Source: an uncultured Candidatus Saccharibacteria bacterium
GTDB taxonomy: Bacteria; Patescibacteriota; Saccharimonadia; Saccharimonadales; 2-12-FULL-41-12
Direction: 5' to 3'
Assembly: GCA_964615775.1 (NCBI GenBank)
Contig: CAZTQB010000003.1
Location: forward strand, 39,172 to 103,171
Length of the DNA: 64,000 nt
The position numbers were made by a program, and so were the translations under genes. Of this stretch, positions 38,747 through 47,430 are shown in pieces. Position 1 is the first letter of the stretch; every line of letters begins with the position of its first letter. Below the pieces are notes generated by a model. It was given only the letters and a program-made list of their open reading frames with translations, had not been told where the DNA came from and did no database searches.

Positions 38747-40295
38747 TGATACTTCCTAAACTTAAGTCGCTGGGTGACACATAACTGTCAGAACCGTTAC
38801 TGATAGTTAACTGCGTACTGCCAATTACAGCACCGGTCATATTGGCGGTGCAGTCAAGTTTGTCATTGATGACAGTTGGAGGGTTAGCTCTTGCTCCGTT
38901 GCAGGTTGTTGTAAAGGTGTTGGCACCTTGTTTTATATTTGCCGATGCATTACTGCATGGAGCATTACTGCAAATATTAATACCCTCTACGCGGAAGCTA
39001 AAGCTACTTAGATTGGTTGAACCTAGAGACAGCTCTTGTGGAGTGAAGGCAAATATCCTTACAGCAGATGAGCTATTTGAGAATATCAAGCGGACTTTCT
39101 GAATGTAATCTTGAGAAGAATAGTTAAAAAGTGGGCTTGGTGGCGAGGTTGAGTCATAAGTCGGCACATTAACTGGTGAATAAGAGCTAATGCCAGCGTA
39201 AGGAATAGCCGCGACAAGGTAGTAGGTAGTGGTGCCTATTTTGCAGTTTAAATTTTGATTGTCACCGCAAAAATAGTATGGTCCTGGCACTAAGTCATTG
39301 AAGGCTGCCAACCCGGTTGCGTTAGTAGATGTCCGACTGTCGGTTGGAGTAAAGTTATCAAAGTAATATTCGGTGTTTTTAGGGTCGGAGTATTTTTTAT
39401 AGCCACCTTTGGCATAAAGCTTTAAGTTGGCCAGTGGACTGCCAGATTTATCTAGTGCTTCGGCAATTAAGCTATTTGACGTCATTGGCTTAATCACCAT
39501 AGTCAACATTGATGGCTTTTGAGATAAGATTTTTTGACTTGAAAAAGTAGGCGTTAATGAACCAGACGGCACAATCGTAACTAGCGTTGAAAATCCGTTT
39601 TTTGAAGCGGTTAACTTGTAGTCAAAAGCGTTACTGTCTGGCTTGAGGTTATAAAAAATTGCTACTCCGTTAGAATCGCTTGTATCATTAGCATTAGTGT
39701 TGGGTGTGATGGTGTTGTTAAAAACATTTACGTTGGCACCAGATATAGGATTACCTTTATCATCTACCACAGTAACTACTAATGCACCAGTCGAGCTAGA
39801 AGTTTCGGCTACTTTTGATGAAATTTGAGTGTCCATGGCTGCCAAAACTGTCCCAGAACGGGATTTCACATCGACGTGAGCGATTTTATAATCAGCCGGG
39901 TTGTTATCTGGTAGAGTAATGCTAGCTGGTACTGGCTTGTTGCGGCAAAGTGCTAATACCAAACATCCATCGAAAGCATCATCGATGTAGTTAATACTAG
40001 TGATAATTGTATAATTTGCTCCATCGATTTTTTGTGTACGGCTAGCTGGAATATAGCTAGGGGCGATAATGCTGCCACCGCTAACTGCTAAATTGTCATA
40101 AGGTAAAGATTTTAGATACTCGATTTGATTTGAAGCAAGTGAATTAGCAACAGCTTTTTGTTTGGCCACTACAGCACTATTAACGAGCGAAGTAAAAAGC
40201 CCAAAAAAGCTAAGTACCACAATCGATAGCACGGTTAGGCCAATTACTAGCTCAACTAAAGTAAACCCACTCTGACTATTATTTAGCTTTAGCAT
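38733..40295 (-). CDS. Giant pilin-like protein (520 aa) with prepilin-type N-terminus
   Basis: SQSGFTLVELVIGLTVLSIV signal and an internal carboxypeptidase-regulatory-like beta segment (VTVVDDKGNPISGANVNVF). Confidence 0.7.
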   Translation of the reverse strand: MLKLNNSQSGFTLVELVIGLTVLSIVVLSFFGLFTSLVNSAVVAKQKAVANSLASNQIEYLKSLPYDNLAVSGGSIIAPSYIPASRTQKIDGANYTIITSINYIDDAFDGCLVLALCRNKPVPASITLPDNNPADYKIAHVDVKSRSGTVLAAMDTQISSKVAETSSSTGALVVTVVDDKGNPISGANVNVFNNTITPNTNANDTSDSNGVAIFYNLKPDSNAFDYKLTASKNGFSTLVTIVPSGSLTPTFSSQKILSQKPSMLTMVIKPMTSNSLIAEALDKSGSPLANLKLYAKGGYKKYSDPKNTEYYFDNFTPTDSRTSTNATGLAAFNDLVPGPYYFCGDNQNLNCKIGTTTYYLVAAIPYAGISSYSPVNVPTYDSTSPPSPLFNYSSQDYIQKVRLIFSNSSSAVRIFAFTPQELSLGSTNLSSFSFRVEGINICSNAPCSNASANIKQGANTFTTTCNGARANPPTVINDKLDCTANMTGAVIGSTQLTISNGSDSYVSPSDLSLGSINVVP

Positions 40296-42162: not shown

Positions 42163-43980
42163 TTAACTTTCGCTAGTCACCCTTAATATCTCTTCGATAC
42201 TAGTCATGCCTCTTAGGGCCTTGATAAAGCCGTCAACTTGCATTGTTACCATGCCTTCAATTATAGCCTGTCTTTGAATATCGTCGCTTGTAGCATTGCT
42301 AACGATTCTTCGTTGAATTTCTTCGGAGTTACCTAGTACTTCGTAAATTCCCATTCGACCACGATAACCCGTGTGATTGCAGGCGTCACAACCTTTCTCT
42401 TTTGGTCGGTATAATTTCTGCAGGCTAGTCTCGGTAGAAGATAATTCACCAGTTTTGTATTTATCAGCTTTGTCTACGGGTTTGCCAATACCGCCTTTTA
42501 GAGCCTCTTTTTCTAGTTGGTTGATCATCTTGATATACTCTGGTGAGTTTATGTGGAAATTTTTGTCGATTTGATGCATAACTGCTTCATCTGGTGTATA
42601 TATCTCACGACATTCTATACACAGTCGACGCACCAATCTTTGACCGATTACACAACGTACAGTCGAAGCGATCAAGAAAGGCTCAATTCCCATATCAAGA
42701 AGACGTGGCAAGCAAGTAGCCGCATTATTTGTGTGTAGGGTTGCAAAAACCAAGTGGCCAGTTAGGGCGGCTTGCACAGCTAGTCCACTGGTCTCGCCAT
42801 CACGAATCTCGCCTACCATAATTATATTTGGATCTTGCCGCAGTAAAGCTCGAAGGCCGTTCGCAAAAGTCATGCCAGCCTTGACGTTAACCTGTGTTTG
42901 GTTAGCACCAGGAATTTTGTACTCGATTGGATCTTCGATTGTAGAGATGTTAACCGATGGCTTATTAAGTAAGCTCAGCGTGCTAAATAGACTAGTAGAC
43001 TTACCGGAACCAGTTGGTCCGGTTACCAAAATCATGCCGTGTGGCTGAAGAATGGCATCGTTAACTGTTTCGAGCGACTTGCCCCAGTAGCCTAGCTCTT
43101 CCAGCGATAGGGCTTTTGACGATTCGCTTAAAATACGCATAACCACTTTCTCACCCTCATTGATAGGCAATGTAGAAACACGTAATGCATAGACAGACGA
43201 GCCAATCTGGATTTTAAATCGGCCATCTTGTGGCACGCGTCGTTCGTCAATTTTTAGATTGCTAAGGATTTTTATGCGGCTTACCAAGGCTCCATGTACC
43301 TTCTTGGGTAATTTATTGGCTTCTTTTAAGATGCCGTCAACTCGGTAGCGTACTATAATATTATCTTCACGTGGCTCAATGTGAATATCGCTGGCACCTG
43401 ACTTAATGGCGTATTCAATTATTAGATTTACGGTTTGGGCAATTGGTGAATCCTCAGCTACATCTTCAGCACTGACACCTAAATCTTCTTCCTCGGATGA
43501 TGTCTCTTCCGAACTGTCTAGAACTTTGGTGAGTTCACTACTGGCATTACCGCGATACTGGTCTATGCCCGTCAAGATATTAGCAGTTGTTGCTAAGTGA
43601 ATTTTTATGTCAGTTCCAAGTTGCTTTTGCAAGAAGTTAATTGCCTGAATATCGTCAGGGTCTTCCATAGCTAATAGCTTAGAACCGTCTTCTTCAACTC
43701 CAAACAAGATCACTTTATATTGTTTGGCAATACGTTCAGGGATAAGCCTTAAGACTTCTCGTGGAATTTCCTTTGGGTTAAGTTCGACATAAGTAATATC
43801 AATCTCATTTGCGTATAGTTTTGCCAAGTCTTTATCAGAAATTAACCCAGCCTTTATCGCAAGATCTTGTAGGGGTTTTTTTTCGGTTTTTTGTTGAGAG
43901 CGGAGTGAAGTTAATTGTTCTTCGTTGGCTTTTTGGGCGTTTCTTAACAATTGCTCCACCAGGCTGTCGGAAATACGCAT
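42163..43980 (-). CDS. pilB: Type IV pilus assembly ATPase PilB (GspE family)
   Basis: Walker A GPTGSGKST, Asp box, Walker B IIMVGEIRD, His box and a tetracysteine motif (CIEC...CDAC). The start was set at ATG 43980 (MRISDSLVEQLL). Confidence 0.9.
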   Translation of the reverse strand: MRISDSLVEQLLRNAQKANEEQLTSLRSQQKTEKKPLQDLAIKAGLISDKDLAKLYANEIDITYVELNPKEIPREVLRLIPERIAKQYKVILFGVEEDGSKLLAMEDPDDIQAINFLQKQLGTDIKIHLATTANILTGIDQYRGNASSELTKVLDSSEETSSEEEDLGVSAEDVAEDSPIAQTVNLIIEYAIKSGASDIHIEPREDNIIVRYRVDGILKEANKLPKKVHGALVSRIKILSNLKIDERRVPQDGRFKIQIGSSVYALRVSTLPINEGEKVVMRILSESSKALSLEELGYWGKSLETVNDAILQPHGMILVTGPTGSGKSTSLFSTLSLLNKPSVNISTIEDPIEYKIPGANQTQVNVKAGMTFANGLRALLRQDPNIIMVGEIRDGETSGLAVQAALTGHLVFATLHTNNAATCLPRLLDMGIEPFLIASTVRCVIGQRLVRRLCIECREIYTPDEAVMHQIDKNFHINSPEYIKMINQLEKEALKGGIGKPVDKADKYKTGELSSTETSLQKLYRPKEKGCDACNHTGYRGRMGIYEVLGNSEEIQRRIVSNATSDDIQRQAIIEGMVTMQVDGFIKALRGMTSIEEILRVTSES

Positions 43981-44117
43981 ATGTTTAATTATATAGTATT
44001 TGTGGTTTTGATATAAGGTTATATAGGAAGATGTGAATTTTACGACTCTTTCATCTGTTGAGTAGTGGTATAATTTTAAGTATCTTAAACTAACCAATGA
44101 GGGGTATGAGGAGTAGT

Positions 44118-45140
44118 ATGGCAGAAAAAACGTCTAAAAAATCAGAAGATTCAGAAGTTGATGGCAAGAAAAAGGCTCTTAGCTTAGCATTAGAAAATAT
44201 TGAAAAACAATTTGGCAAAGGTTCGATTATGAAATTGGGCGAAGCTCATAAAACTAATGTTGAGACTTTTTCGACCGGCTCGATTAGCCTAGATTTAGCT
44301 CTTGGTGGCGGTATTCCAAAGGGTAGAATTATTGAGATTTATGGTCCAGAATCTAGTGGTAAAACTACACTTACTCTTCATGCCATTGCCGAGATTCAAA
44401 AAGCTGGTGGCACGGCAGCTTTCATAGATGCCGAACATGCTTTAGACCCAGCTTATGCTCGTAAGGTTGGAGTAGATACCGACAATTTGCTTATTTCCCA
44501 GCCTGATAACGGTGAGCAAGCTCTCGAGATATGCGAAACTTTGGTTCGTTCATCGGCCGTAGATTTAGTAGTGGTTGACTCAGTAGCTGCCCTTACTCCA
44601 CGGGCCGAAATTGAGGGCGACATGGGTGATAGTCATATGGGTCTTCAGGCAAGGTTAATGAGCCAGGCACTACGCAAACTTACAGGTATTATTAATCGCT
44701 CCAATACCACTGTTATTTTTATCAATCAAATTCGTATGAAGATTGGGGTAATGTTTGGCAATCCAGAAACAACTACTGGCGGCAATGCCCTCAAATTCTA
44801 CGCCAGTGTTCGCATGGATATTCGCCGTATTTCACAGATAAAACAGGGCGAGGAGATTATTGGCAACCGAACGAGAGTGAAGGTGGTCAAAAATAAGATT
44901 GCTCCACCGTTTCGTCAAGCCGAATTTGACATTATGTATAACCAAGGTATTAGTCGAAGTGGCGACATCTTAGACATCGCAGTTGATAAAGGAATCATCG
45001 AGAAATCTGGAGCGTGGTTTGCGTACGGCGAGGGAAAAATAGCTCAAGGCCGTGAATCTGCTAAAACTTACTTAGAAGAAAATCCTAAAATTATGGCTGA
45101 AGTCGAGAAAAAAATTCGTAGTATCAAAACCGAGGATTAA
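44118..45140 (+). CDS. recA: Recombinase RecA
   Basis: [18 protein letters not shown] and VVVDSVAAL motifs. RBS GAGGAG precedes ATG 44118. Confidence 0.97.
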
Positions 45141-45144
45141 ATAA

Positions 45145-45660
45145 ATGCTAGAGATTGATGCCGGTCGATCTTCTGAAATACTGGATGTTTCTAGTGGGTT
45201 CAGAGCAGAAGAAATAATTTCTGCTAGAGTAACTGATGTTTTTAAATTTTTTGCTAACGCTAATGAGCAAAGTTTTGTATCTCCATACTCCGCTGGTAGA
45301 GCAAACAGAACATGGGGCAATAGTAGGAGTGCTGAAAGACAAGCATTGTCGGTTATTGAGGAGGGTACAGATAGCCAGGGCAGTGTTATTGCGAGTATCT
45401 GCACAGCAGCTTTGACTGGTGGAGATTATCCAGCTCCTCGGATAGAAAGATTCAGAGGAGGTCAGCCTGGGAGTCGCCTTGCTAGGTCAGTTAGAGCTTT
45501 AAAAATTTCAGGTTCTCTTTTAAGAGTTGAAGGTTTTTTGTATCAAGTTCACGAAGACTCAAATGTAGCCTATGGTCCTACTAGCTCCCCAATTTGTACT
45601 TTGAGTTCCGAAAGACAAGACGGAAGATTATTGCTTTCAGTAGTTTTCTCGCCGAGATAA
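45145..45660 (+). CDS. Hypothetical 171-aa protein wedged between recA and recX
   Basis: The frame is open for 516 nt and third-codon positions are A/T-biased. RBS GAGGA lies 8 nt upstream, 4 nt after the recA stop and 1 nt before the recX ATG. The composition is atypical (about 17 Arg, 3 Lys). Confidence 0.5.
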   Translation: MLEIDAGRSSEILDVSSGFRAEEIISARVTDVFKFFANANEQSFVSPYSAGRANRTWGNSRSAERQALSVIEEGTDSQGSVIASICTAALTGGDYPAPRIERFRGGQPGSRLARSVRALKISGSLLRVEGFLYQVHEDSNVAYGPTSSPICTLSSERQDGRLLLSVVFSPR

Positions 45661-45661
45661 T

Positions 45662-46267
45662 ATGAAAATTACAGATATACAAAGGCAGGTCAGAGCAGCA
45701 GGACGTTATTCGGTTTTTGTTGATGGTAATTTTGTTTTTGGTTTAAGTGAAACTGGGTTGCTAGAATCGGGCATAAAACTTGGCCAAATAATCGACCAAG
45801 TTGAGCTGAAAAAGCTTAAAAAATTATCTGATACCGATAAATTATATAATCAAACTTTAGGACTGATTGCTCGCAGGCCGCGTAGTCGCAAAGAGATTAA
45901 TGATTATTTAGCTCGCAAAACTGATGATCAACAGGAAATTACACAATTACTTAACAAGTTAAGTAATTTACAGCTAATTGACGATGAAGACTTTGCTCAG
46001 AGGTGGGTAGAAAATCGTCGTCTACTAAAAGCCACCAGCCAACGTAAATTAACCCTAGAACTCAAGCAAAAAGGTATATCAGATGAAACTATCAAACAGG
46101 TTTTAAGCGAAGATGAAACTAACGAACAGGATGTGTTAAGGCGATTAATTATCAAAAAACGTACACAGTCTCGCTATAAAGATGACCAAAAACTGATAGC
46201 CTACCTGGCTCGACAAGGCTTTGGCTACGAAGACATAAAAACTGTTATGCAAAATATCAAGAACTAA
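45662..46267 (+). CDS. recX: RecA regulator RecX
   Basis: GRYSVFVDGNFVFGL N-terminus and repeated three-helix units. The position downstream of recA fits. Confidence 0.85.
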   Translation: MKITDIQRQVRAAGRYSVFVDGNFVFGLSETGLLESGIKLGQIIDQVELKKLKKLSDTDKLYNQTLGLIARRPRSRKEINDYLARKTDDQQEITQLLNKLSNLQLIDDEDFAQRWVENRRLLKATSQRKLTLELKQKGISDETIKQVLSEDETNEQDVLRRLIIKKRTQSRYKDDQKLIAYLARQGFGYEDIKTVMQNIKN

Positions 46268-46413
46268 TCTACTGAACTAGTTCCAATTTATAAAGTATTA
46301 TAAATTGCTATCCAGGAAGATTTTGTATTGTTGCTTAAGTTTTGGCTGACCTTATAGACAGTTTGAGCCAAATTGTAGTAACTTTTGGCGGTGAAGTTTG
46401 TTGAATGAGAAGA

Positions 46414-46932
46414 CTAACTAGCTGTAATTGGCGAAAAGCCTGTTTCTTTGACGATTGGAGCTTCAATAATTATTTCTCGGTCGGTAATCTCTAATATTTG
46501 AGTGCGGTCAATAGTTAGGCTGTTGCCAGAAATGCTTTTTACTAGAGGTTGGGCTGCGTAAATTTTTTTGATATAAAAGCTTTTAGCCTCAAACGCAAAA
46601 TCTATAACCTTGCCATAACTTTGACCATTTTCATCTTTTACTTTTAGGCCTTCAAGTTTAAATTTCAGCTTAATTGTCTCTTGCAAGCGAATCAAGTCTT
46701 TTTCTTCTGTCAAGACATCAAAATCATCAATTGCTAGTCCTTGGGTTAATAAATCTCGAATATCTTGAGTCAGCAGTACCAAAACCGCTTTTGACTGATT
46801 ATCCTGAACTCGCCAAGCTTCAATAAATAGATTGTTGGGGTTGATAATTGGCTCAATTACTACTGCAACTGGCCGTCCAACTCTTAGCGATAGAACTGAT
46901 GTACCCGGGAAGTTCTCGTACAACTTAAGCAT
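46414..46932 (-). CDS. PRC-barrel-like domain protein
   Basis: Two beta-barrel-like halves (VLSLRVGRPVA..., GKVIDFAFEAKSFYIKKIY). The assignment is tentative. Confidence 0.45.
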   Translation of the reverse strand: MLKLYENFPGTSVLSLRVGRPVAVVIEPIINPNNLFIEAWRVQDNQSKAVLVLLTQDIRDLLTQGLAIDDFDVLTEEKDLIRLQETIKLKFKLEGLKVKDENGQSYGKVIDFAFEAKSFYIKKIYAAQPLVKSISGNSLTIDRTQILEITDREIIIEAPIVKETGFSPITAS

Positions 46933-46992
46933 GAGTTTATTATACTACTTATGCTGCTTAAGCAAACGCTACCTGCTATAATCTGCTTAATA

Positions 46993-47430
46993 ATGTACAG
47001 TTTTGAAGTGAAAGAAGAAGCCCAAACGGCCGAACTAGCTAAATTAGTAGCTACTAGTTTGCGTGGTGGCGAAGTATTGGAGCTAATCGGCGACGTAGGA
47101 GCCGGCAAAACTACTTTTGTGCGGTATTTAGTTCAAGCTCTGGGCAGCAGTGACCATGTCTCTAGCCCGACCTTTACGGTTTGTAATCAGTATAAAGCTG
47201 GTCAGCAGATAATCCATCATTGTGATTTTTATCGTTTGGGCAATGATGATAGACTGATTGAGCATGAAATTGCTGAGATGAGGCAACCTAGTGACATTTT
47301 ATTGCTCGAATGGGCTGAAAATACGCGTGTTTTGGACAAAATTAAACCGGTTAGAATTCATATTTCGCTGTTAGATGATGATTTACGGTTGTTTAAAGTA
47401 GAAAATTTACAGATAGAAGGGTTGGCATGA
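46993..47430 (+). CDS. tsaE: tRNA t6A37 biosynthesis ATPase TsaE
   Basis: GDVGAGKTTFVR, SPTFT and HCDFYRL motifs. The start was set at ATG 46993. Confidence 0.8.
   Translation: MYSFEVKEEAQTAELAKLVATSLRGGEVLELIGDVGAGKTTFVRYLVQALGSSDHVSSPTFTVCNQYKAGQQIIHHCDFYRLGNDDRLIEHEIAEMRQPSDILLLEWAENTRVLDKIKPVRIHISLLDDDLRLFKVENLQIEGLA

Follow-up and report, generated by a model that had tools for sequence, protein, structure and literature searches.

A stretch of 64,000 nucleotides from an uncultured Candidatus Saccharibacteria bacterium (contig CAZTQB010000003.1 of assembly GCA_964615775.1, forward-strand positions 39,172 to 103,171; the whole of it is hereafter called the window), with the gene content and closest relatives of a Saccharibacteria (TM7, candidate phyla radiation) genome, carries between recA and recX an open reading frame (ORF) of 171 codons, ORF171, which is a member of no described protein or RNA family. 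This gene is probably a lineage-restricted, fast-evolving passenger in a variable cargo site, co-expressed with recA and relaying translation to recX, and the site itself is more interesting than its present occupant, which, as a kind, is an ordinary orphan gene. Much of the comparison below relies on the closest relative, locus L010, whose RecA and RecX are 94 % and 68 % identical, respectively, to those of the window, and which carries in the same site and frame, 4 nt past its recA stop, the sole homologue of ORF171, a 162-aa ORF (ORF162, positions 3516-4004 of L010).

Layout of the locus

The features of the locus, all on the plus strand of the window, are as follows:

44066..44074, +, candidate extended -10 promoter element TGGTATAAT, as read from the sequence; kept as TGGTATACT in L010
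44097..45140, +, recA, given as the longest ORF (Pfam RecA, 5.4e-146; RecA_C, 2.5e-24)
45132..45136, +, Shine-Dalgarno-like GAGGA within the final recA codons (Glu-Asp), 8 nt 5' of the ORF171 ATG
45141..45144, +, recA/ORF171 junction, ATAA, 4 nt; the spacing in L010 is an identical 4 nt
45145..45660, +, ORF171, orphan protein-coding gene, 171 aa, ~18.5 kDa, isoelectric point (pI) 6.6
45658..45664, +, ORF171 stop TAA, 1 nt and recX ATG, forming a coupling junction; the L010 homologue shares 4 nt with recX, whose start there is GTG
45662..46267, +, recX (Pfam RecX_HTH1/2/3)

A first-pass annotation of this DNA, made by a model from the letters and their ORFs, had placed ORF171 4 nt past the recA stop, with GAGGA 8 nt upstream of its start, and 1 nt before the recX ATG, and the coordinates agree (recA stop TAA at 45138-45140, ORF171 ATG at 45145 and TAA at 45658-45660, recX ATG at 45662). 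The RecX flanking it on the 3' side has 1325 homologues at E <= 1e-20, the nearest non-self one being 68 % identical. Judged by distance, the 4-nt ATAA junction is close enough to suit termination-reinitiation coupling. The GAGGA at the end of recA is, at the same time, older than the cargo, because a recA ending in GAGGA(T/C) is common to L010, L011 and L016, of which L011 has no cargo at all, and the tight junctions of ORF171 are ordinary for this genome, since 17 of the 41 co-directional gene junctions in the window are either overlapping or no longer than 5 nt.

The start of recA is ambiguous: the longest ORF runs from 44097 and gene callers chose 44106, while alignment with relatives and a GAGGAG at 44108-44113 point to the ATG at 44118 (MAEKTSKK...) as probably the true one.

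ORF171 is a protein-coding gene

ORF171 is a genuine protein-coding gene, as the first-pass annotation had maintained, and a reading of the region as RNA is discarded, because the frame is kept in the relative, the codon usage is native-like, Rfam offers no match and there is no special RNA fold. Frame +1 holds 0 stops, the other five frames hold 5-19, and the same goes for the 162-codon ORF of L010; not one of 20,000 composition-preserving shuffles of either ORF stayed open. Codon log-odds are +0.11 for frame 1 of ORF171 (the long genes of the window span 0.06-0.33) and negative for all five other frames, and the gaps in the alignment of the two proteins fall in whole codons. The Rfam covariance scan of positions 43500-47000 returned 0 matches at E <= 1; at gathering thresholds, the whole window yielded only tRNAs, all of them elsewhere than ORF171, and ARAGORN did not find a tmRNA. 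The minimum free energy (MFE) of the folded region has a z of -1.5, with 8 of 100 shuffles folding equally well. Loss of the frame in relatives, conserved RNA structure and an Rfam match, which the annotation had named as grounds for giving up the coding interpretation, were thus all looked for and none was found.

A gene on the opposite strand, suggested by a 110-aa ORF at 45072-45404 (-), was considered and rejected: it is not kept in L010, whose antisense strand stays open for 49 codons at most.

The residue composition, described earlier as odd with about 17 Arg, about 25 Ser and about 3 Lys, does include 17 Arg (12 of them encoded by AGA) and 25 Ser, the number of Lys being 2, as compared with 12 Arg, 11 Ser and 11 Lys in the L010 homologue. 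The product has a grand average of hydropathy of -0.22. The remark that third codon positions are A/T-biased holds (GC content at positions 1/2/3 is 0.49/0.53/0.26), while the impression of a slightly GC-richer region does not, given that ORF171 has 42.5 % GC against 42.3 % for recA, and that the long ORFs of the window lie between 35 and 45 % (median, 41 %). No paralogue or source of ORF171 was found elsewhere in the window. Going by the two sequences, the window copy looks like the result of a lineage-specific change of AAA to AGA together with a gain of Ser.

A family of two fast-evolving members

Single-sequence and profile searches of ~5.8 billion proteins returned only two family members, P0001 (ORF171 itself) and P0122 (its L010 homologue), and an exhaustive hmmsearch of 1.84 billion cluster representatives recovered the same two plus three further matches, which, on inspection of their sequences, are repeat proteins of 1400-1750 aa with many short matched stretches and were set aside as spurious. 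Neither the JGI metagenome contigs and IMG/VR viral contigs, searched with a family pattern and tblastn, nor 50,697 phage genomes, searched with tblastn, contained anything similar. Pfam-A gave 0 families for ORF171 at E <= 1 and, for P0122, a single sub-threshold and irrelevant match (Qn_am_d_aIII, E = 0.22); PHROGs, PADLOC and NCBIfam did not match ORF171, and a profile search of the PDB sequences found none at E <= 10. ORF171 and ORF162 are, therefore, a two-member family without a domain, restricted to one lineage and known from two genomes, as the annotation's epithet "lineage-specific" would have it.

The two proteins are 30 % identical (BLASTP, E = 6e-19), and 51 %, 56 % and 39 % of the first, second and third codon positions, respectively, are the same. 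The nonsynonymous divergence (dN) between the window and L010 is 0.039 for recA, 0.233 for recX and 0.686 for ORF171, so that the latter changes at ~3x the pace of RecX and ~18x that of RecA; all three genes have reached saturation at synonymous sites (proportion of synonymous differences, pS, ~0.7; 0.73 for ORF171, with a synonymous divergence, dS, of at least 2.8). As dN is below the saturated dS, and positions 1-2 are more conserved than position 3, the comparison, which had been proposed in the first-pass annotation, indicates that the ORF171 peptide is under purifying selection, with omega (dN/dS) bounded at roughly 0.25-0.35 or lower. Kept in both proteins are the motifs SxExxALS..EG, SIC, PRIExFR, LRVxGxL and GPxxxPIC, including two conserved cysteines, in SIC and PIC; these cysteines and the Arg-rich motifs might be taken as functional hints, as leads only.

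Loci L001-L008 represent one strain with identical ORF171, seen in at least 8 independent sequencing runs (the ERR106433xx series, DRR438474 and ERZ773355). Across these eight contigs, the flanking genes differ by 3-8 single-nucleotide polymorphisms per contig (2-4 in recA, 1-3 in recX), and ORF171 by 0.

Two AlphaFold2 models, which rest on an alignment of 2 sequences, show the same order of elements, an N-terminal helix (~19-37), a low-confidence or disordered linker (39-66) and 7-8 beta-strands, and no signal peptide or hydrophobic segment was apparent on reading the ORF171 sequence. The product is most likely small and soluble, consisting of a helix and then a beta-sheet. Ranked by probability, the Foldseek matches are headed by Tsi3, an immunity protein of the type VI secretion system, though the match is weak (probability 0.77, E = 0.22, TM-score 0.27).

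A variable cargo site between recA and recX

The presence/absence survey of the recA-recX spacer that the annotation had suggested drew on contigs encoding RecX homologues and on 80 metagenome loci retrieved by means of a RecX alignment, and its counts refer to the 63 Saccharibacteria-like loci that hold both genes. The recA-recX junction is, across these Saccharibacteria-like genomes, a gene-turnover hotspot. recA lies upstream of recX on the same strand in all 63, yet what separates the two genes varies widely: the spacer measures 4-43 nt in 16 loci, where the site is empty, 94-122 nt in 2, and more than 150 nt (up to 2.6 kb) in the other 45. Inserts exceeding 150 nt occur in 71 % of recA-recX junctions, as opposed to 6 % of tsaE-tsaB and 34 % of the junctions between recX and the PRC-like ORF downstream of it, which served as controls in the same loci. 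These 45 loci carry 1-4 small genes each. BLASTP sorts the 67 spacer ORFs into 34 mutually unrelated clusters, roughly half of which have no known domain, and the occupants, by number of loci or ORFs, are as follows:

MazG-like, 11
NUDIX, 9
Ser-hydrolase / alpha-beta hydrolase, 8
150-aa membrane protein, 4
histidine phosphatase, 2
peptidase S51, 2
ORF171 / ORF162, 2
GNAT, NAD-binding dehydrogenase, PRPP synthase and Phd/YoeB pair, 1 each
orphans without a domain, about 15

The tight packing is shared by these unrelated genes: of 43 loci, 27 have a first cargo ORF that begins no further than 5 nt from the recA stop, and 20 have a last one that runs 4 nt into recX, regardless of its product. ORF171, found in 2 of ~65 Saccharibacteria-like loci, is not a conserved part of the recA-recX operon. 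Even loci whose RecX is ~65-67 % identical to that of the window differ in what they hold: the site is empty in L011, L102 has an unrelated 196-aa orphan in it, and L100, a short contig ending there, has the C-terminus of a PRPP synthase directly 5' of recX; in L013, the site holds a MazG.

No member of the ORF171 family hides among the other occupants, as far as could be seen: hmmsearch --max with its profile against the 67 spacer ORFs and L102_196 found none below E = 1, and hhalign of the family against L016_245, L017_229 and L009_137 showed no relation. A likeness between "PRIERFRGGQP" and the "PRFERKGKKQP" of L016_245 was dropped as not significant (probability 0.2 %). No repeats flanking the cargo, which could have represented insertion scars, were found. 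The idea of a defence hotspot was likewise abandoned, with PADLOC, run on ten occupants, matching a sole candidate, a NUDIX (PDC-S07). A limited literature search found no description of genes between recA and recX in Saccharibacteria, which is not proof of novelty.

Two further observations concern particular occupants. A multi-pass hydrophobic ORF of 150-156 aa lies just 5' of recX in L018 (3049-3504), L019 (3052-3504), L030 and L092, the L018 and L019 versions being 41 % identical, with no Pfam family above threshold. In L009, a GTDB representative genome, a run of masked N at ~2150-2260 within recA makes the annotation of recA and the spacer unreliable, and the site there also holds a 362-aa minus-strand ORF without a domain.

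Expression and a proposed mode of action

A consensus scan of the three-gene block found no internal promoter or terminator above shuffle expectation, and as the -10 element upstream is kept in L010 as well, ORF171 would be transcribed on the recA-recX message from the candidate promoter upstream of recA. Ribosomes terminating on recA would then restart 4 nt further on at the ORF171 ATG, aided by the GAGGA in the recA codons, and those terminating on ORF171 would restart 1 nt further on at the recX ATG, as the spacing suggests; production of the ORF171 protein would thus always accompany that of RecA, and its translation would hand ribosomes over to recX and so contribute to setting the dosage of RecX.

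Being next to recA is, nevertheless, weak evidence of what the product does, because in related loci the site is empty or holds unrelated genes with the same tight junctions, and we do not count ORF171 among the core partners of RecA or RecX. We think, rather, that it works on its own as an accessory protein, of use when recA is induced (e.g., by DNA damage or DNA uptake); the MazG-like and NUDIX occupants of the relatives' sites would fit the same accessory pattern.

Several points weigh against this picture of a passenger gene. The function proposed for ORF171 comes from its context only, no homologue, domain or confident fold backing an activity, and its transcription and coupling are read from spacing. 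The structural models are of low confidence (predicted local distance difference test, pLDDT, of 58 with a predicted template modelling score, pTM, of 0.59 for one, and pLDDT of 46 for the other), and Foldseek searches of PDB and BFVD yielded neither an E value below 0.05 nor a TM-score to the query exceeding 0.31. Two members and a saturated dS give only a bounded strength of selection, the odd composition could indicate relaxed constraint or a functional shift, and a RecA-related role for ORF171 is possible.

Alternative explanations

A conceivable, though rather improbable, extension is that the recA-recX junction serves specifically for the expression of cassette-like cargo, where promoterless genes are swapped in and out, new orphans become fixed, and all occupants are expressed together with the DNA-repair/DNA-uptake programme and relay translation into recX. 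ORF171/ORF162 would then be a newly arisen family with a product active in that programme, possibly on RecA, RecX or incoming DNA. Independently of this reading, the site invites comparison with chromosomal hotspots between conserved core genes, a concept of comparative genomics, which the recA-recX site resembles in that its flanks and their order are kept while at least 34 families are swapped, the site often being empty. It differs from them in lying inside an operon and in its cargo of small co-oriented genes without promoters, usually one to three of them, packed within a few nt or overlapping recX; no integrase, tRNA or flanking repeats were seen at the site. Integron cassettes and phage "morons" are alike in being unrelated small ORFs in one orientation that travel as passengers of a resident promoter. 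In contrast to integron cassettes, however, the junctions of ORF171 (4 nt and 1 nt; 1-5 nt or 4-nt overlaps at the site in general) leave no room for an attC, no repeats flank ORF171, and there is no integrase nearby.

Unlikely is the reading, put forward in the first-pass annotation on the strength of position, of a lineage-specific RecA accessory or regulator; "lineage-specific" is borne out by the two genomes, whereas "regulator" by position finds no support in a site that is empty in 16 of 63 loci or holds any of 34 clusters. Spelled out, ORF171/ORF162 would be a clade-specific modulator that binds RecA filaments, RecX or single-stranded DNA in a role like that of DinI, PsiB or RdgC, its fast change reflecting co-adaptation. 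Such a role would agree with its place, coupled at either end, between recA and recX in both carriers, with the purifying selection on the peptide and with the Arg-rich motifs PRIExFR and LRV, which could suit nucleic-acid or protein binding; and, like the RecA modulators (RecX; DinI, PsiB, RdgC), ORF171 encodes a small cytoplasmic protein in the recA transcription unit, for which co-expression is to be expected. Relatives with RecA up to 89 % identical and similar RecX have, however, 33 other clusters or nothing at the site, RecA is 94 % identical between the two carriers, with no sign of co-evolution, and tight junctions are common genome-wide (17 of 41). Unlike the known modulators, moreover, ORF171 is present in 2 of ~65 loci, has no Pfam similarity at E <= 1, be it to the DinI, PsiB, RdgC or RecX models or otherwise, and has a predicted architecture that none of them matches.

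Slightly less probable still would be ORF171 as a translation-relay spacer, whose open frame sets RecX dosage while the peptide is dispensable or nearly so. The amino acid sequence diverges fast while the frame and both junctions are preserved, in 20 of 43 loci the final ORF of the site, whatever its product, shares 4 nt with the start of recX, and the composition of the window copy drifts (Lys to Arg as AGA, extra Ser), all of which one would expect of a mere spacer; but with pS at a saturated 0.73 a neutral peptide would have kept no similarity, and yet the pair retains 30 % identity (E = 6e-19), conserved Cys, Pro, Gly and Trp, motif blocks, and first and second codon positions more conserved than third ones. 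Furthermore, recA lies directly beside recX in 16 loci, which makes a spacer ORF dispensable.

That ORF171 was recently captured as a mobile, phage, defence or toxin-antitoxin gene (e.g., an immunity or anti-defence protein) is quite improbable. The first-pass annotation had raised the possibility of a captured foreign gene, and the site's gain and loss of genes speaks for it only weakly; mobile-type cargo does occur at the site elsewhere, with a Phd/YoeB pair separating recA from recX in L078 and another immediately 5' of recX, with no recA nearby, in L014, the PADLOC candidate PDC-S07 has a match among the NUDIX occupants, conflict genes typically evolve fast, and Tsi3 tops the Foldseek matches by probability, albeit weakly (E = 0.22). 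Those Foldseek matches are, however, non-significant and come from a low-confidence model, ORF171 looks native in GC content and codon usage, neither a partner gene nor an integrase nor a flanking repeat accompanies it, and no donor or homologue appeared among the phage, viral and metagenome collections (no PADLOC or PHROGs match, no IMG/VR contig and none of the 50,697 phage genomes).

Hardly credible, finally, is an accidental ORF within a structured non-coding RNA or within a cis-regulatory element that serves the recA-recX message, for although GC skew is positive (0.20-0.26) over the region and the initial protein search returned the ORF171 product alone, without a homologue, the skew also covers recA and recX, Rfam has 0 matches at E <= 1, 8 of 100 shuffles are as stable (MFE z = -1.5), frame +1 and no other is open in both genomes, and the likeness to L010 shows in the proteins, the gaps being whole codons and third positions the least conserved.

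Place among known genes and significance

As a passenger of the recA-recX site, ORF171 is comparable to the commonest occupants, the MazG-like and NUDIX pyrophosphohydrolases, in position, size (~100-190 aa) and coupling to recA/recX, but it lies outside both families (no Pfam match; no match of its profile to the spacer ORFs below E = 1). It has no conserved Nudix box; its residues 58-74 are loosely similar to one, though they misfit the pattern of that box and are not conserved in the homologue. The class to which ORF171 does belong is that of the taxonomically restricted (orphan) genes, with two members in one narrow clade, fast evolution and no domain, and nothing sets it apart from that category.

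For annotation purposes, ORF171 should be kept as a real hypothetical protein, a RecA-regulator label based on its position being unwarranted. For the Saccharibacteria, whose genomes are reduced and tightly packed, the survey means that the recA-recX operon tolerates and often exchanges passenger genes (~70 % of sites being occupied). Should this turnover exceed the behaviour of an ordinary hotspot, the site could serve for studying how genes are acquired, expressed and possibly even originate in minimal genomes, and also how RecX dosage is affected by a translational relay through variable upstream ORFs.

Neighbouring genes

Converging on recX is a conserved 172-aa ORF at 46414-46932 (-), which in annotated relatives lies downstream of recX, often with a 4-nt overlap with the recX 3' end; it has no curated domain, with a weak, below-threshold PRC-barrel match (E = 0.008).

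On the other side, divergent from recA, lies a type IV pilus/type II secretion system (T2SS) ATPase gene (MshEN + T2SSE; 42163-44097, -), followed by a T2SSF platform gene. The synteny of the pilus ATPase gene with recA is kept in most relatives (L010, L011, L013, L017-L019 and L102), and hints at a link of DNA uptake or pili with recombination genes.

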